Below, piece after piece: positions 5,264 to 49,762 of a stretch of DNA of 64,000 nucleotides; the first letter of the stretch is position 1; each line of letters starts with the position of its first letter. The DNA comes from an uncultured Dehalococcoidales bacterium (GTDB lineage: Bacteria > Chloroflexota > Dehalococcoidia > GIF9 > UBA5629). Location: contig CAZSED010000001.1 of NCBI GenBank assembly GCA_964605885.1, positions 70,428 to 134,427 on the forward strand, given 5' to 3'. The notes under the pieces are model-generated. The model was given only the letters and a program-made list of their open reading frames with translations. It made no database searches and was not told where the DNA came from. Both the position numbers and the translations under genes were made by a program.

Positions 5264-5788
5264 TTAAGGCCTGCCCGGCCAGCGCTGAATGATGCCCTCC
5301 CGGTTGACCTCGACGTATTTACAGCTCGGCGTGTCGCCACATTTGCGGCAGGCTTTATCATAGGCGGAGTTAATCGTGCCGCACTGCGGGCAAGAGTAGT
5401 GCTCCACCATTTCCTCGTACCAGCGCTCCCATCCTGCCTCTTTGATGCGCTCCAGTGATTTCCACAGCTCCAGCCTGTGGGGCAGTATGGACTGGAAGGC
5501 CTTCAATTCTTGGCAGGGGTACTCGGCGCATTGCACGCAGAAGTCGAAGCCCTTCTCTGCAGCGCAGGCATACATCTGGCAGCTCTCGCAGTGAATGTTT
5601 CTCACCTCCGCCCGGCACCCCTGGCAATTCAGCGATTCGACAGGCTGGTTGAAGATGGCCGCCATCGTCCTGAGCCTTTCAGGTTCCTCGCTGGAGCCAA
5701 TATAGATTGTGCAGGAAGGACAGAACAGGCCGCATACCGCAGCTTCCCGCTTATCAGGTCTTTTAGAGGCCGGATTTTTCCCTTTCAT
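5264..5788 (-). CDS. DUF3795-like cysteine-rich protein
   Basis: CGLFCPSCTIY...CQGC...CESC...CVQCAEYPC pattern. RBS GAGGAGG before the ATG at 5788, so the longer ORF start at 5806 is rejected. Confidence 0.6.
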   Translation of the reverse strand: MKGKNPASKRPDKREAAVCGLFCPSCTIYIGSSEEPERLRTMAAIFNQPVESLNCQGCRAEVRNIHCESCQMYACAAEKGFDFCVQCAEYPCQELKAFQSILPHRLELWKSLERIKEAGWERWYEEMVEHYSCPQCGTINSAYDKACRKCGDTPSCKYVEVNREGIIQRWPGRP

Positions 5789-5877
5789 CTTCCACCTCCT
5801 CAACATTATACTTAAACGTCCGGCCTTTCGCCCTGCTCTCGATTGCGGTCCCGCTAATCTGGAGTTTCACCCCGCAA

Positions 5878-6660
5878 TCAATTTTTAATCTCACCCCGGA
5901 TACCGATGATGGTCTCTTTAAAGGGGATATCCTTGCCCGAGGCCAGGATGGCCTGCATGGCCATACGGGTCAAACCGGCGCAGCAGGGCACTTCCATGCG
6001 CAGCACCGCCAGGCTCTTAATATCCGATCTGGTCAGGATATCGGTCAGCTTGGACAGGTGTGCTTCATAGTCGTCGAGCTTGGGACAGGCCACCAGCAGG
6101 GCATGATTCTTCAGGAAATCATGATGAAAACCGCCGTATGAGAAGGCGGTGCAATCGGCCGCCAGCAGGACGTCGGCTGCCTGCAGGAAAGGCGCACCCG
6201 GCGGGACCAGCGTAAGCTGCACCGGCCAGTGTGCCAGGGCGGACGGCATGCCGGCTGTCTCCTCACTTAACGCCGGCGTGGAGGTGGCTTTGAACTGAGA
6301 GACGCTGGAAGACGGGCAGCCGCAGGGCAGCTTCTCTTCTTTATCAAACTGTTTCACGGCTGTGGAAGGACACCCGCAGGCAGGCGGGGGTTGGGAGGAT
6401 TTGCCCTGGACATGTTTTTTAGCGGCCTGTTCATCGAAGGGCTCAGCTTCACGCTCTTCAATGGTTATGGCGCCCTGGGGACATTCAGAGAGGCAGGCGC
6501 CCAGGCTGTCGCAGTACCTGTCTGAGACCAGCCGGGCCTTGCCGTCTATGATCTGCAGCGCACCCTCGGCACAGGCGGGAATACAGGCCCCGCAGCCGTT
6601 GCACTTTTCTTCGTCGATTTTGACTATCTTCCTGAGCGTTTTAGACGTGGTGTTTTTCAT
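5878..6660 (-). CDS. 4Fe-4S dicluster ferredoxin-domain protein with a C-terminal Cys-containing domain of unknown function
   Basis: N-terminal CNGCGACIPACAEGA...CDSLGACLSECPQGA gives two 4Fe-4S motifs. The C-terminal 150 aa carry CTAFSYGG and VPCCAGL motifs. Confidence 0.6.
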   Translation of the reverse strand: MKNTTSKTLRKIVKIDEEKCNGCGACIPACAEGALQIIDGKARLVSDRYCDSLGACLSECPQGAITIEEREAEPFDEQAAKKHVQGKSSQPPPACGCPSTAVKQFDKEEKLPCGCPSSSVSQFKATSTPALSEETAGMPSALAHWPVQLTLVPPGAPFLQAADVLLAADCTAFSYGGFHHDFLKNHALLVACPKLDDYEAHLSKLTDILTRSDIKSLAVLRMEVPCCAGLTRMAMQAILASGKDIPFKETIIGIRGEIKN

Positions 6661-6677
6661 TTTGCACCTCTCTTAAC

Positions 6678-6917
6678 CTATGCGCTTTTACCCTTCAATT
6701 TTTCGTACAGCTCTGCGCCCAGGCACTGCTCGGCAAACCGGCAGTGCGCGGCGCATGTGGCTACGTTGTTGTAAACCGCCTGGCCACACTGCGGACAATC
6801 AACTTTCATATCCGTGGAAAACAGCTCCACCTCGCCCCCGCACTGCGGGCATCTCTTGGCATTGATGGTGGGCGTCCTGATATTGGAAGCACCCGGGCAT
6901 TTAAACAGCATGCTCAT
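6678..6917 (-). CDS. small zinc-ribbon protein
   Basis: CPQCGG...CPQCGQ paired CxxC motifs. Lies 17 nt upstream of the 4Fe-4S gene on the same strand. Confidence 0.45.
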   Translation of the reverse strand: MSMLFKCPGASNIRTPTINAKRCPQCGGEVELFSTDMKVDCPQCGQAVYNNVATCAAHCRFAEQCLGAELYEKLKGKSA

Positions 6918-10460: not shown

Positions 10461-10796
10461 TTACGCCAGGCTTTTAGTTAGCTCGCCCTCGAGTATTTTC
10501 TTGGGCAGTGCGCCGACTTTCCTGTCTGCCAGCTTGCCATCCTTGAATATAAGCAGCGTGGGGATGGCCTGGATCATGTATTTGCCGGCTATCTCACCGT
10601 TCTCATCGGTATTCAGCTTGGCGAAGGTTATTTTCCCCTGGTAGTCTCTGGCCAGCTCATCGATGACCGGAGACATCATGCGGCAGGGTCCACACCAGGG
10701 CGCCCAGCAGTCGACCACCAGTGAGGGATTATCTTTTACCGCCTGGTCGAAATTGGCGGCGTTCAGCTCGACAACAAGCCCGTTTCCTTTGTCCAT
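10461..10796 (-). CDS. trxA: thioredoxin
   Basis: WAPWCGPC active site in a 111-aa protein. Confidence 0.9.
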   Translation of the reverse strand: MDKGNGLVVELNAANFDQAVKDNPSLVVDCWAPWCGPCRMMSPVIDELARDYQGKITFAKLNTDENGEIAGKYMIQAIPTLLIFKDGKLADRKVGALPKKILEGELTKSLA

Positions 10797-10859
10797 TATT
10801 TCACCTCGAACAAAATAATGTACACATTTTATACGGGCCGGCCTGCAGCGAAAATGATT

Positions 10860-11105
10860 TTAGTCACCAAAGCCGGACAGGCGTTCGATTTCATGAATAA
10901 TATGCTCGAGGAGGCGGCTCTCGTCCTGGATTGTTCCCTGCAGGTTTTCGCCGGTTATCACTATATTGTGCCGGGCCTGCGACTTGATGTCATCCTTGTC
11001 AATGCAGGCGCGGCGGCAGCCACAGAGTATCACCGCCAGATCCAGGTCCGGCGATTCAAACGGTACAAACTGGATGTCCACCTTGCCCGCGCCATATTTT
11101 TTCAA
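10860..11105 (-). CDS. hypothetical small Cys-containing protein (TTG start, weak RBS)
   Basis: Same strand as trxA and the AbfD-like gene and sits between them. Codon third positions look coding. It conflicts with plus-strand ORF 10818-11168, so confidence is low. Confidence 0.3.
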   Translation of the reverse strand: MKKYGAGKVDIQFVPFESPDLDLAVILCGCRRACIDKDDIKSQARHNIVITGENLQGTIQDESRLLEHIIHEIERLSGFGD

Positions 11106-11196
11106 TCTGAGCGCCAGTGCGGACAGGTCAACCTCAGGATTGCACGATCCGCAGAACTTGAGCGCTAATTTAATGTTTCGCCTCGCATCGGCCGAT

Positions 11197-12647
11197 TCAG
11201 CAGACGAAGAAGGGTTGGTCGCCTATCTTGGCAAGCTTTTCAGCCAGCCTCTTCTTACGCTCCAGGCTGCCGCGCCTCTCGATCATGATTTTCTGAGCCT
11301 GCGGCGAGCCGGCGCCGTGCATGGATTCGACCAGGGCTGTGCCGCAGGTCATAGCCTCTATCAGCCGCATGAGCCGCATCCTGGTCTCAGGCGGCACCTC
11401 GGCGGTGCCAGCCATATATTTGCTGACCCATTTGCCCACGGTCGGATCGTGTAAATCGAACTCGGAAGGCATGGTGGCCAGCAGGCCGCCTGTTATGTCC
11501 TGGGCCAGCCTCGCTATCTCGTAGACGTTGCGCGTCACATTGAGCTTGGCGATATTGGCCAGCAGCGGGTCGGCCTGGTAGCTTCCGGCCGGCTGTGCAA
11601 AGCCCTGGCAGGAGCAGGCTATAGAGCAGCAGTAGATGGTCTCGGCCAGGTGAATCATCTCGGCCAGCTTGTCGCGGACGTGCGATGCTTTGCTGGTGCC
11701 CTGTGTCTGGGCCAGCGCATACACCGCACCTACCAGCACGTCGGCCAGCCCTCCCTTGCAGCCGCCGTAGTTCTGCCTGTGGAAGGTGGCGAACCTTTCT
11801 ACCAGCTCACCGGCGAACTCATACTCGCCGCACATGAATACGTACTCGTTAGGGATAAATGCCTTGTCGAATATAATCAGCGCCTCGCCGCCCACGCAGC
11901 CGTACTCGCAGTTGCCCTGATCCATGGAGCACTCGCATTTGCGCGTATCGTTTGACTCGCGGCCGAACACATGGATTACTCCGGGCGCATCGATGGGGAC
12001 ATAAAAACAGACTGCATAGTCCTTGTCCTCCGCTCTCATGGCGGCGGTAGGCATGACCAGGTGGCCGTGGGAATTGACGGCGCCTGTGATGTGCAGCTTG
12101 GCGCCGCTGACAACAATGCCGTCCTTTTTCTTCTCAACCACGTGGACGTACATGTCCGGGTCCTTCTGCTGGCTGGGCGAAAGGCTGCGGTCGCCCTTGG
12201 GGTCGGTCATAGCGCCGGAGGGCATCAGGTCCTTAGTCTGGATCATTTTCATGAACTCTTTGAAACGCGGGTGGTAGCTGGTGCCGAATTTCTTATCGAT
12301 ATCGTAGGTAATGGAATAGGTGGCGTTCATACCGTCGAAGCCCACGCAGCGCTGAAAACAGCTTCCGGTCTGCTGGCCGATGGCCCTCAGCATCTTGACC
12401 TTTTTCACCAGGTCGTCATGGTTCTGGTGGATGTGGGTAAAACGGTTTATCTTCTCGCCTGTTAAATGGGATTTGGCCGAACAAAGCTCCTCAAACTCGG
12501 GCGTCAGGGCCATCTCGTAGGTCAGGGCTGCCGAGTTGATATGAGGTATAAATGCCGGGTGGGTGGTGATATCATCGATTTTTTCTCCCATGTAGTAAAT
12601 CACCGGCTTGAGTTTCTTCAAACTCTCTTTGTACTGCTGTCCGGTCA
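11197..12647 (-). CDS. 4-hydroxybutyryl-CoA dehydratase / vinylacetyl-CoA isomerase family (AbfD/HpaB superfamily) Fe-S flavoenzyme
   Basis: Typical AbfD layout with conserved Cys/His (CECSMDQGNCEYGC). Start set at MAQMTGQ with RBS GGAGGT 7 nt upstream, so the N-terminal extension in the ORF track is rejected. Confidence 0.75.
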
Positions 12648-12733
12648 TCTGTGCCATGATATGTACCTCCCAGTATATTTCATTGATAGGTTTATATTTT
12701 AACGACTCAGGAATGTAATTATACATCATGTGC

Positions 12734-12777
12734 TTGACATCTGAATAGTTGTATATTACAATAGTTGTATCATACAA
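12734..12777 (+). promoter_or_regulatory. marR promoter (TTGACA-17-TACAAT) overlapped by palindromic operators TTGTATATTACAA and TTGTATCATACAA
   Basis: Canonical -35/-10 spacing. A perfect 13-bp palindrome at 12765-12777 and an imperfect one at 12749-12761. Direct repeat TAGTTGTAT occurs twice. A TATAAT on the minus strand at 12724-12719 could serve the AbfD-like gene. Confidence 0.45.
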
Positions 12778-12807
12778 CAATAATTTAGTAATGAAAGGAG
12801 GTTGACG

Positions 12808-13251
12808 TTGAAAGACAAGCAGTATATTCAGGTAAACCAGGCTCTTTTCTCGCTGGCGCATTCATACGAGCTGCGGCAGCAGCAGGATGAAAGGGCACGT
12901 GATGCCGGCCTCAGGCTCTCGGACTGTGCAGTGTTGATGGTGCTGGGTCAGACGCAATCTATAACGGCCAGCGGGTTAGCAGACAGAATGGCCATAAACC
13001 GGGGCACTATTTCGCTTTATGTGCAGCGGCTGGTGGAAAAAGGTTTTATACAGCGCGAACGAGACCAGAAGAATCGCAGGTTCTGGTGGTTGGCCTTGAC
13101 GGACATCGGCACGGAAGCATATCGGGCTATCCTTGAAGGCACCGTTCAGCACAGCAAGGATATTTTATCGGTATTAAACGCTGCCGAACAGCGCACGCTG
13201 CACCAATTGCTGCTGAAAGCCGCTCACGGGCTGGGGTTCGTCTGGCAGTAG
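12808..13251 (+). CDS. MarR family transcriptional regulator
   Basis: Winged-helix MarR pattern (SDCAVLMVLGQTQSITASGLADRMAINRGTISLYVQRLVEKGFIQRERD). An in-frame TTG at 12802 is an alternative start. Confidence 0.85.
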   Translation: MKDKQYIQVNQALFSLAHSYELRQQQDERARDAGLRLSDCAVLMVLGQTQSITASGLADRMAINRGTISLYVQRLVEKGFIQRERDQKNRRFWWLALTDIGTEAYRAILEGTVQHSKDILSVLNAAEQRTLHQLLLKAAHGLGFVWQ

Positions 13252-13261
13252 GGATTTTGCC

Positions 13262-14614
13262 ATGAAAAGAAAGCTTGTTTTAATAAATCCGGTCAATACC
13301 GCCCGGATCGGCTTGACAGTAAATAAGAGCTCTCGCTTCCCTCCTCTGGGACTGGCCATTATTGCCTCCCTGACGCCGGATTCGTGGGACGTCAAACTGC
13401 TGGATGAGACCTGGGAGCCTTTTGTTTACTGTGAAGCTGACCTGGTTGCAATCACCGCCTTTACGGCAACCGCGCCCCGGGCCTACGAAATTGCCCGGGC
13501 CTACCATGCCAACAATGTGCCGGTGGTTCTCGGTGGTATACATGTATCTATGTGCCCGGAGGAGGCTTTAAGGTATGCTGATTGTGTGGTCATCGGGGAG
13601 GCGGAGACGGTCTGGCCTCAGATCGTGTCTGACTTCGAGTCCGGAAAGCTTCAGTCTCTTTATCGGGGCTCGTGGGGTGACCTGGCAGGCATGCCTGCGC
13701 CAAGACGCGACCTGCTTGATCGGCGTTACATGTTTGCGTCCGTACAGACATCGCGCGGCTGCCCAATGGACTGCGATTTCTGCTCGGTGACTGCCTTTAA
13801 CGGACGGCGTTACAGACGGCGCCCTGCCGCAGAGGTGCTGGATGAGCTGTCTACGGTGCGTCAAAAGATGGTCTTCTTTGTGGATGATAACATTATTGGC
13901 TACGGGGAAGAAGCTAGAAGGAGTGCGCTGGAGCTGTTTAGAGGCATGGTTGAAAGGAAGCTGGATAAGTGGTGGTTCTGCCAGGCTTCCCTTAACTTTG
14001 CCGATGATGAGGAAGTCCTGAAGTGGGCGGCACGCGCAGGATGCAAATTGGTCTTCCTGGGCTTGGAAGCCGAAGACGAAGGCGCTCTTGCCCGGATCAA
14101 TAAACAGCTGAATTTGAAGCGCAGGCCCTCAGCCTATGCTCGAGCCTTTCAACGCATTCACAGGGCCGGCATCGCTGTCCTGGGGGCGTTCATCTTTGGG
14201 CTGGATGACGATACCACCGCCAGTATGGATGCTCGGGCAAAATATATGATGAAGAGCGCCATAGATGTTATGCAAATAACGCACCTGACCCCCTTGCCCG
14301 GCACGCGCCTTTACGCCAGATTGCAGGAGGATAAGCGGCTGCTCTACACTGATTTCCCGGGTGATTGGAGCCACTACGATATGACTCAGGTGGTGCACAG
14401 GCCTTTGTCGATGACAGAAGAAGAGTTCGCTGCCGGTGTTCTGCATGGCAACAGAAAGCTATATGCGTGGCCTGTCATCCTGAGAAAAGCATTACAGTGC
14501 CTGCTTTCAACACGAAATCTGACAGCCTTCATGTTCGCGCTGCAGTCCAACGTAAACTATCGCAATGTGGGCGAGCACGGTTTGAGCAGACGGGCAAATG
14601 AAATTAACGCTTGA
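13262..14614 (+). CDS. B12-binding domain radical SAM protein
   Basis: N-terminal cobalamin-binding fold (VLINPV...VVLGGIHVS) and a radical SAM CxxxCxxC motif SRGCPMDCDFCSV. Confidence 0.85.
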   Translation: MKRKLVLINPVNTARIGLTVNKSSRFPPLGLAIIASLTPDSWDVKLLDETWEPFVYCEADLVAITAFTATAPRAYEIARAYHANNVPVVLGGIHVSMCPEEALRYADCVVIGEAETVWPQIVSDFESGKLQSLYRGSWGDLAGMPAPRRDLLDRRYMFASVQTSRGCPMDCDFCSVTAFNGRRYRRRPAAEVLDELSTVRQKMVFFVDDNIIGYGEEARRSALELFRGMVERKLDKWWFCQASLNFADDEEVLKWAARAGCKLVFLGLEAEDEGALARINKQLNLKRRPSAYARAFQRIHRAGIAVLGAFIFGLDDDTTASMDARAKYMMKSAIDVMQITHLTPLPGTRLYARLQEDKRLLYTDFPGDWSHYDMTQVVHRPLSMTEEEFAAGVLHGNRKLYAWPVILRKALQCLLSTRNLTAFMFALQSNVNYRNVGEHGLSRRANEINA

Positions 14615-15576: not shown

Positions 15577-16833
<1,257 letters not shown>

Positions 16834-39900: not shown

Positions 39901-40422
39901 CTACTTTAAAGACCTGTCTGTGAGCAGGTTCCACGTGCTGTCACATACGGCTGACACTATCTTACAGCCGGTCACCGTGATCTGCGCCGCGTGCTGCGTT
40001 ACTACTTCAGCCAGTACCTGGCCCTTCCTGTCGCCGTGGCCTGGATGCGCCGTCTTGAAGAAATAGAGAAGTTTCCAGGTCTTGCCGTTATCGGCTGACG
40101 TTTCGCTGTCCAGCTTGATGCTGTCCTTGATACCGTCGAAAGTAAAGGTCGGGCTATTCTTTATCAGGGTCAGGGCCAACCCGGCGGCCTGGGCGTCAGT
40201 ACAAACACCCTTCTTATAGACTTCAGTGGAGCAGGACCCTGCCTTGGACCCAAATAAGACAACAGCGAAAATGCCGCTGAGCACCAGGAAGCTTACGACA
40301 GTCAGTATTATACCGCTGAGTAAGCTCTTATTTTCAAATACATTTTTAAAGGGTACTTTCCTGGGTGGTTTTTTGGGTGTTTCCTCAGGCGTTTCCCTGG
40401 GCGCTTCTTTGGGTTCCTGCAT
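39901..40422 (-). CDS. membrane-anchored hypothetical protein
   Basis: Basic/Pro-rich N-terminus, one TM helix, and an extracytoplasmic domain with four Cys. Confidence 0.45.
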   Translation of the reverse strand: MQEPKEAPRETPEETPKKPPRKVPFKNVFENKSLLSGIILTVVSFLVLSGIFAVVLFGSKAGSCSTEVYKKGVCTDAQAAGLALTLIKNSPTFTFDGIKDSIKLDSETSADNGKTWKLLYFFKTAHPGHGDRKGQVLAEVVTQHAAQITVTGCKIVSAVCDSTWNLLTDRSLK

Positions 40423-40515
40423 GGATAATATTATAAGATCGCCGGTGAGCCGCTGGCAACGGGGTATAGCTTTTCACGAGCGGCCCATAATATACTATTA
40501 CTACAGGAGGTGCGT

Positions 40516-41073
40516 ATGCTGGAGACGTTGGTGCGCAACTGGTGGCTGATTGCACTGCGGGGCCTGGTGGCCCTCATCCTGGGTCTCGTCCTGTTGATAA
40601 TCCCCCCGGCAGCTTCAGCGATGTTCCTGGTGCTCTTTATTGGCGCCTATGCTCTGGTTGACGGCGTTTTCGCGCTGGTAGTGGGCATCATCAACAGGCC
40701 TGCCCACAGGGACAGGTGGTGGCTGATCATCGAGGGCACACTGGGCATACTTGCCGGCATCGTGATATTCACCTCGCCGCTGCTGGCCGGCGCAGTGCTT
40801 CTGTTCGTGATTGCCTTCTGGGCGCTGTTAACAGGCATATTCGAGATCGTCTTTGCCGCCATGCAGTGGAAATCCCTGCCGGACAAGTGGCTGCTGCTGC
40901 TGGGCGGCATCATCTCCGTGCTGCTGGGCATTTTCATCCTTTCCAATCTGGCCCTGGGTGCAGTGCTGGTGATAGTGATGATCGCCGTCTACCTGGTGCT
41001 GTTCGGCGTGGCGCTGATAGCCATGGGCTTCTCGCTCAAGGGCGCAGCCAAGGACCTGCCTAAAGCGGCATAG
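40516..41073 (+). CDS. HdeD family (DUF308) acid-resistance membrane protein
   Basis: Six TM helices with the HdeD pattern. RBS AGGAGGT 7 nt before the ATG. Confidence 0.75.
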   Translation: MLETLVRNWWLIALRGLVALILGLVLLIIPPAASAMFLVLFIGAYALVDGVFALVVGIINRPAHRDRWWLIIEGTLGILAGIVIFTSPLLAGAVLLFVIAFWALLTGIFEIVFAAMQWKSLPDKWLLLLGGIISVLLGIFILSNLALGAVLVIVMIAVYLVLFGVALIAMGFSLKGAAKDLPKAA

Positions 41074-41102: not shown

Positions 41103-41191
41103 TGGCGGAGGGGGCGGGATTCGAACCCGCGTTAGCAAAAAGCTAAAACGGTTTTCAAGACCGTCACCATCGTCCGCTCGGTCACCCCTCC
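41103..41191 (-). tRNA. tRNA-Ser (anticodon TGA), encoded CCA, long variable arm
   Basis: The minus-strand sequence GGAGGGGTGACCGAGCGG...CGGTCTTGAAAACCG...GGGTTCGAATCCCGCCCCCTCCGCCA folds as a class II tRNA. The anticodon loop CTTGAAA gives UGA. Confidence 0.85.
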
Positions 41192-41377: not shown

Positions 41378-42121
41378 ATGGAAATTTTTGAGCTTATGAG
41401 CATCTCACACCGCTATATGGAGATACTGAATCCCTCCACGTCTGAAAAGATCATTAAACTTGGCAAGCTACTCAAATTGAACAAAGGAAGCCGGGTCATC
41501 GACTTCGGTTGTGGTTGTGCTGAGCCACTCACTCTCTGGGCTGAAGAATTCGGTATCACTGGTATTGGCATAGATATATCCGAAGATTTCTGTGACCGAG
41601 CTAGGAAAAAGCTGGCCATGAGAGGGTTGTCAGACAGAATCGAAATCGTTTGCTCCAACGGGGCTGATTACGTATTCGAAGAAGGGGCCTTCGATGCTGC
41701 AACGTGTATTGGGGCAACGTTTATTTTTGGCAGCTACCAGAAGACAGTCCAGGTACTGAAGCGGGCTGTTCATCAGAATGGACGCCTTGGTATCGGCGAA
41801 ACTCACTGGCTTAGCAATCAGGTGGATCCGGAATACTCCCAACGACAGGCAACTACCCACACAGAACCAGTACTAACTCAATTTACCCGGGACGAAGGCT
41901 TTGAGCTTGAATACATCATCCGTGCTAGCAGCGACGATTGGGACAGGTATATTTCAGATAGTTGGTACGGACTGATACGTTGGCTTAATGAAAATCCCAC
42001 TCACCCTGACCATGAACAGGTATTCAAATATTTTCGCACTGACCAGGATGATTATTTACAGTTCCAACGCCAATATATGGGTTGGGCTATGTACTGCCTA
42101 GCTCCCATCAAATCTCGTTAG
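41378..42121 (+). CDS. class I SAM-dependent methyltransferase (low-GC, likely horizontally acquired)
   Basis: VIDFGCGCAEP SAM-binding motif I. GC is visibly lower than the flanks, and AT-rich codons dominate. Confidence 0.8.
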   Translation: MEIFELMSISHRYMEILNPSTSEKIIKLGKLLKLNKGSRVIDFGCGCAEPLTLWAEEFGITGIGIDISEDFCDRARKKLAMRGLSDRIEIVCSNGADYVFEEGAFDAATCIGATFIFGSYQKTVQVLKRAVHQNGRLGIGETHWLSNQVDPEYSQRQATTHTEPVLTQFTRDEGFELEYIIRASSDDWDRYISDSWYGLIRWLNENPTHPDHEQVFKYFRTDQDDYLQFQRQYMGWAMYCLAPIKSR

Positions 42122-42254: not shown

Positions 42255-42299
42255 GCTGGCAACTGGAGTTATGTGTGACGCGCGGGTCAATAGGAGTTG
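42255..42299. repeat. right copy of the ~46-bp direct repeat, overlapping the stop codon of gene 42287-44551
   Basis: GCTGGCAACTGG (12/12) followed by GCGCGGGTCAATAGGAG (17/18) relative to the left copy. Confidence 0.5.
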
Positions 42300-44551
42300 T
42301 ATAAGGCTTCAAGCTGGCTCAGGCTGGCGAACGAGCCGTCCTGTATCTTCCTGACGATGCCGGTGGAGTCCAGCATGAACGTCTTGGGCACCGAGGAGAT
42401 GTTGTAGTCCGTTCCCACCTGTCCGGTCTCATCCAGCGCCACGGTGAAGGTGTAGTTGCTGGTGGTGATAAGGTCTCCCACCTGGTATTTATTGACGGCG
42501 CCCAGCTGCGGGCCGCAGACGGCAATGATGGGCACGGTGGGATATTTTTCATGCATCTGCTGTATCAGCGGCATCTCGGACCGGCAGGGGCTGCAGTTAT
42601 AAGCCCAGAAATTGATTATCACCTTGCCGCCGCGCAGGTCCTTTAAAGCAATGTTGGTGGCGTCGGTACCGGGCAGCGTGAAGTCTGGCGCCTGCTGCCC
42701 TACTCCAGTCCCCGATGCAGGAGGCGTCTGGAACGTGGCATCGGGCGAAGCGGCCTCATTGCCGGCGGCATCCCTCGATTTCACCTTGTAATGGATGGTG
42801 CCCTGCAGGGGCAGACCGTTCAGCGTTATGCTGTGGTCTTTTATCATCGTTGTGTCCGTGCTGGACGGCTGCACCGTTCCATAGGTCTCGGTGTTGCCGT
42901 AAGCCACCTGGCTGGTAGCCGGCTCATCGGTCAGCCACTCTATCGTGGCCGAAGCATCAACGGAAGAGCTGATTATATTTGCTGCCTTGACTAAAGAGAT
43001 GACCGGAGGCGTTGTATCCCTCACGCCGGTGGTGATCAGCACGCTGGTGGCATCCAGCTGAGCGTCCGGCGCATCATCCGCGTCGCTGAGGCGCGATTTA
43101 ACGGTAATGTGATAGGACTTGTTGGGCTGCAGGTTGGTTAGACTTACCGTGTGGTCCGTGACCAGCGCGTCGTTTTTCGCATTCTCGCATTGCGTACCGC
43201 CCTCCAGGCAGTAGATGACGATGCTGCTTGATTTCTTATCCGTTTGCCAGGTGACCACCCCGCTCGTCTGTGTGATATCGCTGAACTGGATGTTGCTTAT
43301 TTCCGGCGGCCTGGCCACTATGGTCCCGGCGCTGGTTGCAGAAGGGTTTAGCTTGGCCGGCGGCGGCGTTTTAAGCTGGTCCATTACCATCACGACCGAG
43401 ACGATTATGATCCCGGCCAGTGCCAGGAGGGCCAGGAGTATTGGCAGGGGATGCTTCTTTTCCTTTGGTTCCCCTTCGCCCTCCAGCGCCTCCTCATAGG
43501 CGGCTTTCCCTTTCCTTTTCGGCTTGGGCCTTCTCTTTTCGTGCCGGGGCCTTTCTTTGATGCGAGGCGCAGGCGCCGGCATGGCTATGTCATATGGTTG
43601 CACGGCCGGCTGGCCGTAGTACTGGTCAGCTTGCTGCAGGACGGGTTGCCCGTAGTACTGGTCTGCCAGCGGCGCGGCGTTGGGCTGGCCGGCTGAAAGC
43701 GGAGACTCGGATGGCATTGTTGCCACGTGGGACTTGTAATAGTCCTCGGCCTTGAGCATGGGCCTGCCCTTCTCCATTGGCAGGCGATTCCAGCCGCAAG
43801 AAGGACAGATCTTGCTGCGGTCGGGGACCGGTGAATGGCAGTTGGGACACAGGCGCTGCTCCCCGGCGTAATCCTGGGAGGCGCCCGCCTGCATCATGGC
43901 ATCCTGCGGTGCTGACGGAATGGGATTCATTTGCGGATAAATATCCTGGGGTGGGGTGTGCCTGGGCTGCGTCCTCGTCTGCTCCGCCTCGGCGCTGGCG
44001 GCGCGCTTGGCCTCGATGCGCCTCCATAGGTCTCCGGTGTGCCTGCCCGGCATCAGGTTTTTTTCGTCCCTCATCACAGCTCCGCCGCCGAACTTACCGT
44101 GTACCGGGCAAAGGCTCGAGCCTGGCGGAATGGGCGTGCCGCACTTGGCACAGACCTTTTGTTTGGAGGGCGCCTCCGACTCACCGCGGTATAATCCGCT
44201 GGAGTGACCCCCATCGGCCGGCTGCATAACACCAAAGCCCTGGGCCGGGGACTGCGTGACCAGCTGTCCCAAGCGCCCGCAGTACGGGCATTTCCTGGCC
44301 CCCGGGCTGATCTTTGAACCGCAGTTGGAGCAGTAGAACTGGCTGCTGGATGAACCTGTTGAAGCGGGCGCCGCCGCGTATTTACCCGGCCTGAATGAGA
44401 GGTCCTTTTTCCCGCAATGCGGACAGACGCTGGCATCTGGTGATTCGATAATGAGGTGACAACTCGGGCAAAAGCGGGCGCCGCATTTCTGGCAGGTTAC
44501 AGCGTTTGGTTCATTGACCTCATGGCACCGTTGACAGACTATGCTGGGCAT
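42287..44551 (-). CDS. paralog 1: four N-terminal zinc ribbons, Pro/Gln-rich linker, TM helix, FN3-like domains and C-terminal TlpA-like thioredoxin (thiol-disulfide oxidoreductase)
   Basis: Four C-x2-C...C-x2-C modules. TM helix LPILLALLALAGIIIVSVVMV. FN3-like motifs VTWQTD and IEWLTD. Redoxin motif INFWAYNCSPC. Confidence 0.7.
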   Translation of the reverse strand: MPSIVCQRCHEVNEPNAVTCQKCGARFCPSCHLIIESPDASVCPHCGKKDLSFRPGKYAAAPASTGSSSSQFYCSNCGSKISPGARKCPYCGRLGQLVTQSPAQGFGVMQPADGGHSSGLYRGESEAPSKQKVCAKCGTPIPPGSSLCPVHGKFGGGAVMRDEKNLMPGRHTGDLWRRIEAKRAASAEAEQTRTQPRHTPPQDIYPQMNPIPSAPQDAMMQAGASQDYAGEQRLCPNCHSPVPDRSKICPSCGWNRLPMEKGRPMLKAEDYYKSHVATMPSESPLSAGQPNAAPLADQYYGQPVLQQADQYYGQPAVQPYDIAMPAPAPRIKERPRHEKRRPKPKRKGKAAYEEALEGEGEPKEKKHPLPILLALLALAGIIIVSVVMVMDQLKTPPPAKLNPSATSAGTIVARPPEISNIQFSDITQTSGVVTWQTDKKSSSIVIYCLEGGTQCENAKNDALVTDHTVSLTNLQPNKSYHITVKSRLSDADDAPDAQLDATSVLITTGVRDTTPPVISLVKAANIISSSVDASATIEWLTDEPATSQVAYGNTETYGTVQPSSTDTTMIKDHSITLNGLPLQGTIHYKVKSRDAAGNEAASPDATFQTPPASGTGVGQQAPDFTLPGTDATNIALKDLRGGKVIINFWAYNCSPCRSEMPLIQQMHEKYPTVPIIAVCGPQLGAVNKYQVGDLITTSNYTFTVALDETGQVGTDYNISSVPKTFMLDSTGIVRKIQDGSFASLSQLEALYNSY

Positions 44552-44629
44552 GAATTATTTTCCATTTGTACACACGCCTGTTTGCTATATTAAAGTTAAG
44601 GCAACATATCTGAGATGTCAAGTTTGACA

Positions 44630-46009
44630 TCAGTACGATTCGAGCATGAATTCCACTTCAGCCGGGCTGGTGAACATGCCCTGCTGGATCCTGCGGATTA
44701 CACCGCCTTTGTCTATAAAATAGGTCTTGGGTATGCTGACTATTTCATAACGGTTGAAGACGGCGTCGCTGGGGTCCAGGCATACCTCAAAATCAAACTT
44801 GTTCTCCATTTGGACATAGTCTCTTATAGCCGCTTCGTCGGACTGGCTGCCGGCAATGGTCAGCACCATAACGTTGGGGCTGTCGCGGTATTTATCCCAG
44901 AGTGCCTGCAGGTGCGGGAGCTCGATTTTACATGGGGTGCACCAGCTGGCCCAGAAGTTAAGTACCACCTTTTTGCCCATATACTGGCTAAGAGTAACCT
45001 GTGTGCCGTCGAGGTCCTTGAGCGTGAAATCGGGCGCCCTGCTGCCCATGTAAGGGGCAGCATTTGATACGGGCTCTGTCCTGAAGGTGTTGTCGCTGGA
45101 GGTAAGTGTGTTTCCCGAGGAATCCTTGGAGATAGTCTGGTAATGGTACAGGGAATCCGGCGCAAGGCCCTGTAACAAAATGCTGTGGTCGGTCTTCAGC
45201 TCGATTATCTCTATGGAGGGGAACGGGTAGGTAGTATCGTTTCCGTACCTGAGAAAAGAGGTTGACTTGATGTTGGTTTTCCAGCCGACCGTGGCTGAAA
45301 AACTGCTGGCCGACGCCGCGGGGCCATCGGTGAAGCGCAGTTTATCCGAATCCGGCTGAGGATTTGAGGGCGGCGGCTTGGTGTTGGCTACCGAAGCATT
45401 ATCAGCGGCTACCAGCGGTTTGTTCTTATTTACCTCGGGAGGCGTTGCAGGGGGCTTGATATCGTCGGGCTTTTTGGCTGTCGATTGGTTATCCGTGACC
45501 GTTACCGAAGGAGGGTTCTTAACAGTTTTATTGTCAGACGGGCTGCTGCGGGCCAGGGCGGCCAGCTTGCCGGGAAGGTTGGCTGACTCTATAGCACGCG
45601 CCATTGAGCCGGCATTGGCTGCTATGATTACCAGGCAGGCCACACCGGCCAGCACCACGGCAATATTGCGGACCGCCGTCTTATTAACGGGACGCCTGAC
45701 TGGCTTTCTGGCATAGAGGCTCCTTATATCGCGGTCATCGTCTGTTATTTCTCTCTCTTCTGATTTGCGGGCGCGCCGCGGCCTGATCTCGATATCGACT
45801 TCTTCGCTGATGAACACATCCTCTTTTTTAGCAGGCCTGTGTTTTTCCGGCTCAGGACGCCTTTCAGGTGTAAATTTAAGCTTGAACTGCCTTTTCCTGT
45901 CCGGCAATGAGACAGGTATATGCGGCCCTGTGGACTCACAATTAGGGCAGTACTGGTTTATGTAGTTCCGGGGTTTGCCACAACCCTCGCATTTAAATGG
46001 GTATGCCAA
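44630..46009 (-). CDS. paralog 2: zinc ribbon, TM helix, FN3-like domain and TlpA-like thioredoxin
   Basis: TTG start. CEGCGK...CPNCES ribbon. TM helix IAVVLAGVACLVIIA. FN3-like motif VGWKTN. Redoxin motif LNFWASWCTPC. Confidence 0.7.
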   Translation of the reverse strand: MAYPFKCEGCGKPRNYINQYCPNCESTGPHIPVSLPDRKRQFKLKFTPERRPEPEKHRPAKKEDVFISEEVDIEIRPRRARKSEEREITDDDRDIRSLYARKPVRRPVNKTAVRNIAVVLAGVACLVIIAANAGSMARAIESANLPGKLAALARSSPSDNKTVKNPPSVTVTDNQSTAKKPDDIKPPATPPEVNKNKPLVAADNASVANTKPPPSNPQPDSDKLRFTDGPAASASSFSATVGWKTNIKSTSFLRYGNDTTYPFPSIEIIELKTDHSILLQGLAPDSLYHYQTISKDSSGNTLTSSDNTFRTEPVSNAAPYMGSRAPDFTLKDLDGTQVTLSQYMGKKVVLNFWASWCTPCKIELPHLQALWDKYRDSPNVMVLTIAGSQSDEAAIRDYVQMENKFDFEVCLDPSDAVFNRYEIVSIPKTYFIDKGGVIRRIQQGMFTSPAEVEFMLESY

Positions 46010-46053
46010 TTTAGATCAGACCTCGCCGCAGGTGAAGAATATACCGGCACTAC

Positions 46054-46638
46054 TCACTGTGAGGGCTTGAAAACCTCGGGCACAGTGGGAGATGCCAGCC
46101 ATTTGGTGATTGTATCGTAGTTGTTAATTACGTACATTGCCAGCAGGATGAGAAGTATAACCAGGATAACGCTAACTATTATAGTGGTGAGGCTGCCGCC
46201 TTTGCTCCTTTCGGGCTGCTCTTCCTCCTCTTCCTCTTCATCGGATTCGTCCTCGTATTCAGCCTCAAAGTCCTCATCCTCATCTCTGCGTTTGCCCTTT
46301 TTATATTCTTTTTCTTCAAGCCGGTCCATATCTTCAATATGGTCCAGCATGGGGCTGCGCCGGCGGATGCCCGCCGGGAATTTGTCCTCGTCATCCTCCC
46401 GGCTGCCCCGCATCCTGGATGGCGCTTCGTCAGCAATATCTACCGGCCCGGCGTCGACAAAACCGCCGGCGGAAGGTGTGAAGCTCTCCCTTCGTCCTGC
46501 AGCCGGACCTGCGCTTGCCCCTGCAGCGGATTCAGTCCTATTCACAAAGTCATGCGGCCCCAGACTGCCGCAGGCATCGCACTTCTGATTGATGGAAGGC
46601 ATGGGATTTCCGCATTTACATCTGAACTGAGTTTCCAA
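46054..46638 (-). CDS. paralog 3 (truncated): zinc ribbon, poly-acidic tract and TM helix only
   Basis: Start chosen at a TTG with RBS AAGGAG 8 nt upstream (METQFRCKCG...). CKCGN...CDACGS ribbon. Acidic run DEDEDFEAEYEDESDEEEEEEEQ. C-terminal TM helix. No FN3 or TlpA domains. Confidence 0.5.
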   Translation of the reverse strand: METQFRCKCGNPMPSINQKCDACGSLGPHDFVNRTESAAGASAGPAAGRRESFTPSAGGFVDAGPVDIADEAPSRMRGSREDDEDKFPAGIRRRSPMLDHIEDMDRLEEKEYKKGKRRDEDEDFEAEYEDESDEEEEEEEQPERSKGGSLTTIIVSVILVILLILLAMYVINNYDTITKWLASPTVPEVFKPSQ

Positions 46639-46784
46639 TGTATTTTCTCCTTGAAAAAGAAATTTGCGGATGTGCGGAGGCAGTTGAACGGCTGCTGATT
46701 TGATCCATATACGAGGCAATTAGTATCATTCAATATCTACACTACAACGGGATAAAACTGATGTCAAGGTATTTTTGGGCAGTA

Positions 46785-48353
46785 TTATAAATCGTTGAGA
46801 ATCTGCTGCACCTGATCGATGTTAAAGTTGCCGAATTCAACAGCGCGAATAATGTTCTCGCCGTCGATGAAGAACGTGCAGGGGACCTTCTCAACGTTGT
46901 AGAGATGAGCCGTGGTCTTGTAGGCGTCCAAACATATGGCGAATGTAGGGTCGCCAAGGCGGGACTTGTAGGCCGAAATGGCCTTGTTTATCTCCTCCGG
47001 CTTGCTTTCCAGGAATACGCCGATTACAGCCACCCCCTGCGGGTTTCTGTTCCTAACCGTTTGCAGCAGCTCAAGCTCACGGTCACACTCGGGACAATAA
47101 ACGGCCCAAAAGCTCAGCAGGATTTTTTGACCCTTATAGGTGCGCAGGGAAATGCTTTCCTGTGAATTGACCAGCGGAAGGGTGAAATCCGGTGCGCGGT
47201 CGCCTATTTTCGAGCCCAGCGGCACGGAAACATAGGTTACAAAGCTGTCCGGCGGCTCCATAATCGCCTGATTGCCGTCTGCATCAACGGATTTTATTCG
47301 ATAGTAGTAAGTCTGGCCGGGCTGCAGGCCACTGACGCGGATTGAATGCTGGGTGATCAGCCTGGAGTCGACTGATGTTGAGCCCGAGGTCGACTGGTCC
47401 AGCCCGTAGAGTACCTGCGCGGTGGCAGGCTTGTCGGTCGCCCAGGTAACGACGGCGCTTATATCGGACGGCAACACTGTGAATTGTGAGACCACGGGCG
47501 GCTGGGTGTTGCTCCTAGCCAGCGTGCTGAATGTTTGGTCCATGCTGCGCGATAGCTCTTTGCCGTCTTTATCCATAGCCAGCACTGCGAAGTGGTAGGC
47601 GGTCGCAGGCTCAAGCCCGCTGAGAAGCACACGGTGCGATGCCGTCCGGTTGTCTGCCTGAGAGGCCAGGCCGTACAGGTCGGCCTTGCCGTACAGGACC
47701 TTGCCATAGGCCGCCAGGTCAGTAGTCCAGGCAATGCTGGCCCCGGTGGCTGTTACCTCGGACACTGCTATGTTTGCTACGGCCGGCATGGCGGTCGGGG
47801 TTGCAGACTGAGAGGGGGCCTTTGGCACGGTGAAAAGCGACCTGAAAAGGCCTGATTGATAGGCCAGCAGGCCGCATAAACCTACGATTATGACGACGAT
47901 GGCAGCGATAATAATGACGTCAAGCTTTTTAAGCCGTTTGACTCCGATGGCGGAACTGCGCCTGCCGATCTTGGCGCCGGCCTGACCCCTGGCCGGTTCC
48001 CCGCGCTTCTCCCCTTCGGGTCCGCTGCCGCCGGGCTGGTCCTGGGCCTGCGGGTAAATCTTGGGTTTCTGCGTGCTTTTACCGCAGTGGGGGCACTTGG
48101 GCAGCGCTGATGGCAGCACGGCCATGCAGTTAGGGCAGCGGTACTGTCTCTGTTCCTGCCCGGAAACAGAATCTCCCATGCCGGAAGCCGACCTCTTCTC
48201 TATAATCCTTTGCCAGAGGCTAACGCCCTGCTCCTCCACCCGGTCCATATACCAGCGTTTGCCGCAGGCAGGGCAGATTGCCGTGCCTTCCGGCACAACC
48301 TTGCCGCACTGCCGGCAGAACTTCGGGCCCGATTGTGATTCAGCTTCAGCCAT
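46785..48353 (-). CDS. paralog 4: two zinc ribbons, TM helix, two FN3-like domains and TlpA-like thioredoxin
   Basis: CRQCGK...CPACGK and CPNC...CPHCGK ribbons. TM helix VIIIAAIVVIIVGLCGLLA. Redoxin motif LSFWAVYCPEC. Confidence 0.7.
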   Translation of the reverse strand: MAEAESQSGPKFCRQCGKVVPEGTAICPACGKRWYMDRVEEQGVSLWQRIIEKRSASGMGDSVSGQEQRQYRCPNCMAVLPSALPKCPHCGKSTQKPKIYPQAQDQPGGSGPEGEKRGEPARGQAGAKIGRRSSAIGVKRLKKLDVIIIAAIVVIIVGLCGLLAYQSGLFRSLFTVPKAPSQSATPTAMPAVANIAVSEVTATGASIAWTTDLAAYGKVLYGKADLYGLASQADNRTASHRVLLSGLEPATAYHFAVLAMDKDGKELSRSMDQTFSTLARSNTQPPVVSQFTVLPSDISAVVTWATDKPATAQVLYGLDQSTSGSTSVDSRLITQHSIRVSGLQPGQTYYYRIKSVDADGNQAIMEPPDSFVTYVSVPLGSKIGDRAPDFTLPLVNSQESISLRTYKGQKILLSFWAVYCPECDRELELLQTVRNRNPQGVAVIGVFLESKPEEINKAISAYKSRLGDPTFAICLDAYKTTAHLYNVEKVPCTFFIDGENIIRAVEFGNFNIDQVQQILNDL

Positions 48354-48499
48354 TGCTATGGAAAAACGCCTGTCTGAATTTACCTAATTATATACATATT
48401 TATTTTTTATGTGAAAGGATTATAAATAGTATCTGCAGTCCGCTGCGTGATATTTGGGCGGAAAAGAGAATTTGGGGTGGACGGAAGGTCCACAAGAGC

Positions 48500-49762
48500 C
48501 TATTTAATGGCCTCCAAATTCATGTAGGGCCTTAAGGCTTCAGGCACCATTATGCTGCCATCCGCTTGCTGATAGTTTTCCATGACGGCTATCATCACCC
48601 TGGGCAGTGCCAGCCCCGAGCCGTTGAGCGTGTGTACCAGGACTGGCTTTGCTTCGACGTCCGGGCGATATCGCACATTGGCCCTGCGGGCCTGGAAATC
48701 GCCGCAGTTGCTGCAGGAGCTGACCTCGAGCCACTCCCCGCAGCCCGGCGCCCACATTTCGATATCGAAAGTCTTTGCAGCCGCGAATCCCAGGTCGCCG
48801 GTGCAAAGTTGGATTACGCGGTAGGCCAGCCCCAGCTTCCGGCAGACTTCCTCTGCGTTGGTAACCAGTTTGCTGAGCTCGTTATCAGACGTATCCGGCT
48901 GGACGAATTTGTACATCTCCACCTTCTCGAACTGATGGCCGCGTTTTATGCCGCGCGTGTCCTTGCCGGCAGCCATTTTTTCGCGGCGAAAGCAGGATGT
49001 ATGCGAGACGTAATTGAGCGGCAGCATGCCGGGGGCTAATATCTCGTCGCGGTGCAGGTTGGTCAGCGGCACTTCTGCTGTGGGGATAAACCAGTAGTCC
49101 TCTTCGGCATCGTGATAGAGGTTGTCGGCGAACTTGGGAAGATTGCTTGATCCCACCAGGCATTCCCTTTTGACCATGAAGGGTGGGAATATCTCGGTAT
49201 AGCCGTGCTGGTTAACGTGCAGGTCGAGCATGAAGCTGATCAAGGCGCGCTGCAGCAGTGCACCGGCGCCCGACAGCACATAAAAGCGCGTGCCGGACAG
49301 CTTCACGCCGCGCTGGAAATCGATAATTCCCAGCTTCTCAGCCAGCTCCCAGTGAGGGAGGGCCTTGAAATCAAGCTTTTTGGGCTCGCCCCATGCACGA
49401 ACAATTACATTTTCTTCTGCGCCTTTACCTTCGGGCACGTCCGGCGCAGGGATGTTAGGCAGCCGCAGCAGCCTGTCCTCCAGCTTATCAGCCAGCTCCT
49501 TGGCCTCTGCTTCAATGCGGGATATGTTATCTCCGACCTGCCGCATTTCCGCTATGAGATTGGCAGGCTTCTCTTTCATCTGGCTGATCTTCTTGCTCAC
49601 ATCATTGCGCCGCGCCCTAAGAGACTCAGCCTCTTTCAGCAGCTGCCTGTAAGCGTTGTCCAGGGTTATCACCTCATCCAGTTGTGTAGCGTCCTCGCCG
49701 CGCTTCTTCATGGCAAGGAAGACGGCGTCCGGATTTTCGCGTATCAGCCTGATATCTATCAT
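48500..49762 (-). CDS. serS: seryl-tRNA synthetase
   Basis: N-terminal coiled coil plus class II aaRS motifs. 420 aa. Confidence 0.95.
   Translation of the reverse strand: MIDIRLIRENPDAVFLAMKKRGEDATQLDEVITLDNAYRQLLKEAESLRARRNDVSKKISQMKEKPANLIAEMRQVGDNISRIEAEAKELADKLEDRLLRLPNIPAPDVPEGKGAEENVIVRAWGEPKKLDFKALPHWELAEKLGIIDFQRGVKLSGTRFYVLSGAGALLQRALISFMLDLHVNQHGYTEIFPPFMVKRECLVGSSNLPKFADNLYHDAEEDYWFIPTAEVPLTNLHRDEILAPGMLPLNYVSHTSCFRREKMAAGKDTRGIKRGHQFEKVEMYKFVQPDTSDNELSKLVTNAEEVCRKLGLAYRVIQLCTGDLGFAAAKTFDIEMWAPGCGEWLEVSSCSNCGDFQARRANVRYRPDVEAKPVLVHTLNGSGLALPRVMIAVMENYQQADGSIMVPEALRPYMNLEAIK

Follow-up and report, generated by a model that had tools for sequence, protein, structure and literature searches.

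A conserved serS-linked gene cassette of Dehalococcoidia encoding predicted zinc-ribbon, FN3-stalked, TlpA-like thioredoxin membrane proteins

Extracytoplasmic thioredoxins keep proteins of the cell envelope reduced, serving cytochrome maturation, methionine sulfoxide repair and spore cortex synthesis. Concerning the Dehalococcoidia, a mostly uncultured anaerobic class that is abundant in peat, sediments and aquifers, we know of almost nothing on envelope redox homeostasis. Among the closest described proteins are ResA and StoA of Bacillus subtilis and CcmG/DsbE, in which a thioredoxin fold with a TlpA-type insertion, a CxxC active site and a cis-proline is placed outside by an N-terminal membrane anchor. 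DsbD consists of an Ig-like alpha domain with a cysteine pair, a beta membrane domain and a gamma thioredoxin domain. The uncharacterised 'zinc ribbon + TM' proteins of the DZR and Zn_Ribbon_1 families, from Gram-positives and archaea, display an N-terminal CxxC-x10-14-CxxC, a single transmembrane (TM) helix and an outside domain. In Streptococcus pneumoniae, the surface thioredoxins Etrx1 and Etrx2 receive electrons from CcdA1 and CcdA2 and reduce MsrAB2 (PMC3914529). The present analysis deals with a 64-kb stretch of DNA from an uncultured Dehalococcoidales bacterium (contig CAZSED010000001.1, positions 70,428 to 134,427; hereafter the window, whose numbering is used below) and with an array of four adjacent minus-strand genes in it, in the order P4-P3-P2-P1, each an open reading frame (ORF) coding for a predicted single-pass membrane protein. 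Three of the products, P1, P2 and P4, are proposed to be CcdA-fed thiol-disulfide reductases that are tethered to the membrane, with FN3 stalks and an extracytoplasmic catalytic domain, and that are encoded in a conserved, lineage-specific cluster of Dehalococcoidia, a reading to which we assign a probability of roughly 60%.

The array shares with ResA/StoA and CcmG/DsbE all the features just mentioned, the outside position of the catalytic domain being in its case a predicted one, but it has no resBC or ccm neighbours, scores below all the NCBIfam cutoffs, and has in addition an FN3 stalk of one or two domains, between one and five zinc ribbons in a cytoplasmic tail, and three paralogs per cassette. 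As in the Etrx1/Etrx2-CcdA1/2-MsrAB2 system, the thioredoxins would be surface-exposed in a cell without outer membrane, and there is more than one paralog in each case, probably with overlapping roles; the Etrx proteins are lipoproteins encoded beside ccdA (and msrAB2), whereas the array proteins have a TM helix with ribbons as their anchor, and neither ccdA nor msr was found in the window. The likeness to DsbD is an analogy from general knowledge of that protein: P1 too would carry outside both an Ig-like domain with a cysteine pair (an FN3 with a Cys hairpin) and a thioredoxin domain, but the array proteins have their domains in another order and lack a cysteine-containing multi-helix membrane domain. 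Compared to the 'zinc ribbon + TM' proteins, with which the N-terminal motif and the single TM helix are shared, the array differs in that the outside domain is FN3 plus thioredoxin. A literature search on this architecture found nothing and the homologs are only generically named, so the initial annotation, which had recognised no characterised system here, still holds in this respect. What is new is the combination of a ribbon array, a TM helix, an FN3 stalk and a TlpA-like domain, together with the three- or four-gene serS/tRNA-Ser cassette and the split P3/P2 pair; the catalytic chemistry is probably conventional.

As judged by predicted fold, motif and profile, the catalytic domain of P1, P2 and P4 belongs to the TlpA/ResA/CcmG/Etrx group. 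In AlphaFold2 (AF2) models of P4 and P1, the FN3 domains reached a predicted local distance difference test score of about 90, and the thioredoxin domains scored about 80 (P4) and about 90 (P1). When the P4 thioredoxin domain was compared with known structures by Foldseek, the top match was ResA (1su9, TM-score 0.88, root-mean-square deviation 1.7 A), followed by DsbE-like proteins, Etrx2, StoA, SdbA and CcmG, and the FN3 part matched tandem FN3 pairs. The solved sequences closest to P2 were those of Etrx2 (4hqz/2yp6, E 6e-24) and then those of ResA and StoA (E 1e-20 to 1e-18). The best NCBIfam model for all three proteins was that of ResA, NF002854, with 85.2 bits for P1 (5e-24), 107 bits for P2 (1e-30) and 67.5 bits for P4 (1e-18). 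Since the CxxC cysteines and the cis-proline (in loops VPKTF of P1, IPKTY of P2 and VPCTF of P4) are invariant in the ortholog alignments, P1, P2 and P4 are predicted to be active enzymes. Concerning topology, each protein has one TM segment, and in P2 and P4 the 20-residue flanks of this segment contain 7 Lys plus Arg on the N side versus 2-3 on the C side. P1, P2 and P4 would thus be type-II (N-in, C-out) proteins, with the thioredoxin domain outside on one or two FN3 domains and with five, one and two predicted Cys4-type zinc ribbons, respectively, in cytoplasmic N-termini.

Much of this was anticipated by the initial annotation. The four consecutive same-strand ORFs of 754, 459, about 194 and 522 amino acids (aa) are present in the ORF map, the 194-aa form of P3 agreeing with the start of its orthologs. 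The proposed sequence of inner ribbon, TM helix, FN3 and outer TlpA-like thioredoxin is supported, for P1, P2 and P4, by Pfam matches and by a single hydrophobic segment in each. Profiles for zinc ribbon, FN3 and redoxin found their domains in P1 and P4, and those for redoxin and Pur_ac_phosph_N did so in P2, while the models of P4 and P1 confirmed the thioredoxin and FN3 folds. The three CxxC sites exist, as CSPC (residue 653 of P1), CTPC (357 of P2) and CPEC (420 of P4). The paralogy is also real, with significant pairwise alignments of P1 to P2 (38% identity over 225 aa, E 2e-45), P2 to P4 (31% over 244 aa, E 2e-27) and P2 to P3 (54% over the 26-aa ribbon, E 3e-5); moreover, the ribbon-helix-ribbon module of P4 aligns to residues 124-253 of P1 (E 6e-8). 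Two details of the ribbons needed correction. Zinc ribbons do occur in all four proteins, but the count of one to four falls short for P1, which has five, and the C-x2-C pattern is general except for the first knuckle of P3, which is CxC.

P1 (42287-44551, minus strand, 754 aa) starts with its five predicted ribbons (aa 6-252, nt 43796-44536), four of CCCC and one, the fourth, of CCCH type. They are followed by a P/Q/Y-rich linker, the TM helix (aa 369-390, nt 43382-43447), a first FN3 domain with the Cys hairpin C448-x6-C455 (nt 43187-43210), a second FN3 domain, and the thioredoxin domain (aa 615-754) with its NCSPC site (CSPC at nt 42584-42595) and the cis-proline P722. The Pfam matches were Zn_Ribbon_1 (5.8e-21, five stretches), DZR (5e-14), Pur_ac_phosph_N (1.7e-11) and fn3 (6.7e-9) in two stretches, and AhpC-TSA/Redoxin (8.8e-21). 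In an alignment of 27 sequences, all 20 ribbon ligands, C448, C455, C653, C656 and P722 were invariant, and the active-site dipeptide varied across orthologs between C[SGA]PC and CH[YF]C. The linker contains an imperfect direct repeat of 2 x 36 bp, with copies on the minus strand at 43631-43666 (ADQYYGQPVLQQ) and 43595-43630 (ADQYYGQPAVQP), identical in 28 of the 36 nt by direct comparison and not called by Tandem Repeats Finder. The tandem duplication of 39 bp described earlier does therefore exist as a repeat, but with a period of 36 bp (12 aa). It is lineage-specific: the QYYGQP motif occurs once in the orthologs, whose small repeats are different ones and again particular to a lineage. A HMMER search of 1.84 billion cluster representatives with the full cytoplasmic module of P1 (residues 1-262) gave three proteins below 1e-30 and six below 1e-10, the remaining matches being generic zinc-ribbon hits; no exchange of the ectodomain on this module was seen among those representatives. 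Judging by this search, the module is restricted to this lineage.

P2 (44630-46009, minus strand, 459 aa) contains a single ribbon (C7/C10/C21/C24), with all four cysteines invariant among the orthologs, then a fast-evolving basic linker, the TM helix (aa 116-137), an S/T/P/N-rich linker, one FN3 domain (about aa 219-311) and the thioredoxin domain (aa 320-459) with a WCTPC site (CTPC at aa 357-360, nt 44930-44941). Pfam gave AhpC-TSA (1e-25) and Pur_ac_phosph_N (3.9e-5). The active site of its orthologs, WC[TSGN][PA]C, is the most ResA/Etrx-like among the three catalytic paralogs. The ribbons of P2 and P3 were recognised by motif and conservation, with no Pfam match. P4 (46785-48353, minus strand, 522 aa) contains a first ribbon (C13/C16/C27/C30), a conserved helix (aa 38-56), a second ribbon (C73/C76/C87/C90) and a disordered basic linker, the ligands of the second ribbon being invariant in 15 orthologs. 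The TM helix (aa 144-164), a pair of FN3 domains (aa 192-276 and 288-372) and the thioredoxin domain (aa 383-522) follow, the latter with CPEC at aa 420-423 (nt 47085-47096) and the cis-proline P491. Pfam gave AhpC-TSA (2.6e-18), Pur_ac_phosph_N (8e-17), fn3 (1e-11) and DZR (2e-6). C420, C423 and P491, as well as the whole CPEC motif, are invariant. Another feature of P4 is Cys492 (nt 46878-46880), which comes directly after the cis-proline (VPCT), is present in 12 of 15 orthologs and is a possible third active-site thiol.

The place of the array in the genome is conserved. A 2.47-Mb contig, a 121-kb contig and 23 GTDB species representatives show the same succession greA-lysS-serS-P4-P3-P2-P1. 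For every paralog, 1:1 orthologs were found in Dehalococcoidia genomes of more than 20 species, their lengths being constant at about 530 (P4), 210 (P3), 455 (P2) and 735 aa (P1). Identities to the window proteins are 48-62% for P4, 49-56% for P1, 40-49% for the whole of P2 (53-60% for its FN3 plus thioredoxin part) and 38-51% for P3, next to 76-82% for SerS and 85-93% for GreA; in the closest relatives, the array proteins are only about 60% identical. The databases hold 81 relatives of P4 and 76 of P1, nearly all full-length, with 46-60% identity, assigned by their sources to Dehalococcoidia or Chloroflexi metagenome-assembled genomes (MAGs) and called 'redoxin / zinc-ribbon / FN3 domain-containing protein', 'peroxiredoxin' or 'hypothetical protein'. 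The upstream neighbour is the seryl-tRNA synthetase gene serS (48500-49762, minus strand), preceded by lysS and greA. The downstream boundary is the tRNA-Ser(UGA) gene (41103-41191, minus strand), which in close and distant Dehalococcoidia is found on the same strand about 70-160 nt past the last array gene (16264-16352 in relative L003, 11896-11984 in L005, 16201-16289 in L022, 10784-10869 in L034, 9525-9610 in L035, 10971-11055 in L037 and 11314-11401 in L031). The distant members L031, L034, L035 and L037 have only two such genes in this slot. The conserved gene order and the serS/tRNA-Ser flanks indicate that the array is an old, stable cassette fixed between these genes and not a diversifying one, and the even GC content across the window indicates that it is native.

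Beyond this cassette, the design of ribbon, TM helix, FN3 and thioredoxin is found at several loci and in several paralog families within Dehalococcoidia. The relatives recovered outside the class were either CcdA-thioredoxin fusions or ordinary TlpA-like proteins of 160-280 aa whose N-terminus carries a single TM or signal segment, and no zinc ribbons were found among them. The cassette is conserved in part of the Dehalococcoidia among housekeeping genes, and for this reason it probably belongs to the core envelope biology of those organisms.

P3 (46054-46638, minus strand) is the only member without FN3 and thioredoxin domains, and it matched no Pfam family. Its 194-aa form starts at a TTG codon at 46638 preceded by AAGGAG, in agreement with the 'M(E/D)SQFRC' start of the orthologs, although a longer ORF of 221 aa, counted from the first TTG, extends to 46719; the same four genes were found on independent assemblies, where P3 is called at 194 aa. 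It contains a CxC...CxxC zinc ribbon, a conserved FPAGxRxRSxxLD motif, a poly-acidic tract, a TM helix (aa 150-171, nt 46126-46191) and a short WLASPTVPE tail. The initial annotation took it for a merely truncated paralog, but the comparison with relatives gives another picture. Two configurations are found there, either four genes as in the window or three genes, with a single protein of 583-631 aa in sister lineages (here P2long) replacing P3 and P2. The N-terminal part of P2long (about 215 aa) is collinear with P3 over the whole length of the latter (42% identity over 217 aa), both having the ribbon, the FPAGxRxRSxxLD motif, the acidic tract and the TM helix; after it come a linker, two FN3 domains and a thioredoxin domain, with 59% identity over 222 aa to the C-terminus of P2. 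In a joint alignment with P2long, every stand-alone P3 stops at one position, just past the tail WLASPTVPExxKPS. Moreover, the ribbon, motif, TM helix and identical C-terminus of P3 are kept in at least 10 genomes and in 15 database clusters, the 15 homologs being all named 'hypothetical' and without Pfam family.

It seems reasonable to interpret P3 as the detached N-terminal module of a P3+P2-type protein, arisen by gene fission and conserved as a stand-alone protein. A neighbour-joining species tree of SerS+LysS alone left unsettled which form, fused or split, was ancestral; the domain trees added to it are suggestive and not decisive. In the three trees (SerS+LysS, P2 C-terminus and P3 module), the fused-type L027 was basal and the split forms were mostly together, which fits a single fission with the fused form basal and suggests, but does not prove, the direction of change. 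Split-type P2 retains its own ribbon, with its four invariant cysteines, and its TM helix, together with the fast-evolving basic linker and one FN3 domain. The simplest history would be that a P2long-type gene was duplicated once and that complementary loss followed, with P3 retaining the cytoplasmic module and P2 the ectodomain. Whichever the direction, the occurrence of fused and split forms would tie P3 functionally to P2, and it indicates that the cytoplasmic ribbon-acidic module does not need a covalent bond to the ectodomain in order to work. The P3/P2 pair may therefore offer a direct approach to the function of the 'zinc ribbon + single TM' modules that are widespread among bacteria.

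Concerning the source of electrons, no ccdA or dsbD gene was found in the window (ORF and TM map, Pfam on multi-TM ORFs, and tblastn with the CcdA of L032). More generally, neither the ORF map of the window nor the 10 kb around the array in relatives revealed a gene for CcdA/DsbD, ResB/C, Msr or a sigma factor, the Pfam scan covering part of the window ORFs. The multi-TM ORFs of the window checked by Pfam were TauE, BrkB, DUF308 and DUF1634 proteins. The window does encode a cytoplasmic TrxA (CGPC, 10461-10796). On the other hand, Dehalococcoidia MAGs have a separate locus with the order trxA, ccdA, a lipoprotein TlpA gene (CKEC) and three further thioredoxin-type genes, seen in L032 (7870-13435) and also in L033, L036, L038, L039 and L041. 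In the L032-type locus, these three genes code for a protein with ribbon, TM helix, two FN3 domains and a thioredoxin-like domain without CxxC, for a TM/FN3/thioredoxin protein (CSAC) and for a double-thioredoxin lipoprotein. The locus appears to be an expanded, uncharacterised envelope thioredoxin set. Two MAGs hold both the serS-linked array and the trxA-ccdA locus: CAZDXZ01 (L020 and L038) and DFZI01 (L021 and L041).

The FN3 domain with a Cys hairpin (W.T...C-x4-6-C...LVT.H) is a subtype seen in all P1 orthologs and in proteins of the ccdA locus (L032, 9587-11302 and 11382-12326; L033, L036 and L039). It is kept even in ccdA-locus proteins whose thioredoxin-like domain has lost CxxC. The hairpin may serve as a second redox centre or simply form a structural disulfide; its presence in the CxxC-less proteins would fit a redox or recognition role of its own, and a structural disulfide fits equally well.

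In the mechanism proposed, electrons would pass from cytoplasmic thioredoxin to a membrane protein of the CcdA type, whose gene would lie elsewhere in the genome, and from it to the thioredoxin ectodomains, in the manner of the ResA, StoA and Etrx pathways. The three differing active-site dipeptides and the extra cysteines would provide three substrate or redox specificities, and the FN3 domains would hold the catalytic domain off the membrane. The cytoplasmic ribbons and motifs would serve assembly or positioning, possibly of a P1/P2/P3/P4 complex, rather than electron transfer; this is most likely in view of the single TM helices without conserved cysteine, the sole TM cysteine of the array (C159 of P4) not being conserved. 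Because the same FN3-thioredoxin family lies beside trxA-ccdA in related MAGs, we infer a CcdA-fed reducing role, although it is a step further than a thioredoxin ectodomain as such. Several points weigh against this reading. A ccdA or dsbD gene was found neither in the window nor, in any of the relatives, at less than 10 kb from the array; CcdA is linked to the array by co-occurrence in the genomes of relatives and not by adjacency, the source genome being seen here through 64 kb. The direction of catalysis is not readable from sequence, and some TlpA-fold proteins, such as DsbE and DsbF of Mycobacterium tuberculosis, act as oxidants. The variable dipeptide of P1 may mean that redox properties differ between species. 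The extracytoplasmic location is a prediction, the TM flanks of P3 do not follow the positive-inside rule, and both the interaction among P1-P4 and the binding of zinc by the ribbons are putative.

Other explanations were weighed against CcdA-fed envelope reductases of this kind. That P1, P2 and P4 are ordinary cytochrome c maturation thioredoxins, with the function of ResA or CcmG in the extracytoplasmic reduction of the cysteines that bind heme (CxxCH) in apocytochromes, would agree with ResA giving both the best NCBIfam model and the best structural match, but we regard it as unlikely. The scores of 67.5-107 bits remain well below the ResA cutoff of 170, and those of all the equivalog models remain below theirs, so the proteins are not ResA in the strict sense. 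No resB/resC (ccsB/ccsA) gene was found in the window ORF map, among its Pfam-checked membrane proteins or among the annotated neighbours of L003, L004 and L005, nor was any resB/resC/ccsBA-type gene found within 10 kb in relatives. Three paralogs with FN3 stalks and zinc ribbons correspond to no characterised ResA or CcmG, and the CEPC motif of ResA is in none of P1, P2 and P4. It also seems improbable that the ectodomains form or isomerise the disulfides of secreted and envelope proteins, in place of a DsbA-type system. Some TlpA/CcmG-fold proteins are indeed oxidants or isomerases, no CcdA is adjacent to the array, and the invariant Cys pair in the FN3 domain of P1 itself must be either formed or kept reduced; besides, a passage of PMC5909903 describes HP0377 as a reductase/isomerase. 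However, the closest characterised relatives (ResA, StoA, Etrx2, SdbA-type proteins and CcmG) belong mostly to CcdA-fed reducing pathways, the same protein family is directly beside trxA-ccdA in related genomes, and no DsbB/VKOR-type partner was seen near the array. More doubtful still is a hetero-oligomeric envelope redox machine peculiar to Dehalococcoidia, in which the ribbon arrays would assemble P1-P4, and the Cys-hairpin FN3 of P1 would act as a second redox centre similar to DsbD-alpha, receiving electrons from the thioredoxin domains and handing them on to envelope substrates. If true, trans-envelope thiol redox transfer would have been solved here in a new, modular way.

A signalling role, suggested by the initial annotation, would make of these proteins trans-membrane redox sensors, the state of the outer thioredoxin being relayed to cytoplasmic ribbons that bind or release a regulator in an anti-sigma-like manner. 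Conservation is as high in the cytoplasmic modules as in the catalytic domains (P1 has all of its 20 ribbon ligands invariant), helices and motifs are conserved in common between P1 and P4, and the P1 module is confined to this lineage. Nevertheless, we consider this role very unlikely: there was no zf-HC2 match in Pfam at E<=0.1, whereas ZAS-type membrane anti-sigma factors have this HxxxCxxC motif and an ECF sigma factor gene next to theirs; no sigma factor, kinase or transcription factor gene is found beside the array in the window or in annotated relatives; the neighbourhood is a housekeeping one; and the AF2 models show the ribbons, at moderate confidence, as beads on disordered linkers, with an inter-ribbon helix (aa 38-56 in P4, 172-190 in P1) and one TM helix, and without a defined output domain. 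Finally, a paralog family in rapid diversification or in decay, P3 being a pseudogene-like remnant, was suggested by the strongly differing lengths of the paralogs and by low-complexity linkers with small lineage-specific repeats. It is extremely improbable in view of the 1:1 orthologs of constant length, in the same order and place, and of the preservation of P3 with its identical C-terminus; what had been called a diversifying family turned out to be conserved, not variable, among relatives.

Two other family names were considered and rejected. Many homologs carry the name peroxiredoxin from the Joint Genome Institute, but the sites FWAYNCSPC, FWASWCTPC and FWAVYCPEC have the thioredoxin-type WCxxC context. 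The peroxidatic cysteine of peroxiredoxins sits in a PxxxT/SxxC motif, which is absent here, as the array active sites have no Pro at -7 and no Thr/Ser at -3. The array proteins are not DsbD either, as they have one TM helix each and no multi-helix membrane domain, which in DsbD is central and carries two essential cysteines, and no DsbD family was among the Pfam matches at E<=0.1.

Regarding expression signals, a promoter-like site (TTCACA-17-TATAAT, 11 of 12 positions) is found on the minus strand at 48387-48415, in the serS-P4 spacer and 34 nt upstream of the P4 start; it is a consensus match only, and the total of such sites in the region was not above that of shuffled sequences. A terminator scan of the spacers among the four genes gave nothing convincing, and the tRNA was the only Rfam match in the region.

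Other genes deserve a brief description. In the 798-aa longest ORF of L031 (6654-9050), a DctM-like N-terminus (296 of 413 profile positions) is joined to a C-terminus with InlB-B-repeat, FN3 and redoxin; since this could result from a frameshift, from a true fusion or from an ORF call that runs on into the upstream gene, it was not used. In the window, the region of trxA (10461-14614) also contains genes for an HpaB-like flavin monooxygenase/dehydratase-family protein (11197-12861) and for a B12-binding radical S-adenosylmethionine (SAM) protein (13262-14614). Small Cys-rich genes on the minus strand at 5264-6917 code for a DUF3795 protein with a C-terminal zinc ribbon, a 4Fe-4S ferredoxin-domain protein and a 79-aa zinc-ribbon protein, and they adjoin TauE/SafE and DUF1634 membrane proteins (4000-5222). 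Between P1 and tRNA-Ser, a class-I SAM methyltransferase gene (41378-42121, plus strand) is inserted in the window; it is missing in L003, L005 and L022, where the tRNA is within about 70 nt of P1, and other inserts of 1.3-2.5 kb occupy the same tRNA-proximal spot in L007 and L011, so this spacer appears to be an insertion hot spot. Further on the tRNA side, most relatives share two genes that flank the array, one for a single-TM protein of 145-175 aa with no Pfam family (39901-40422, minus strand) and one for a DUF308 protein with six TM segments (40510-41073, plus strand).

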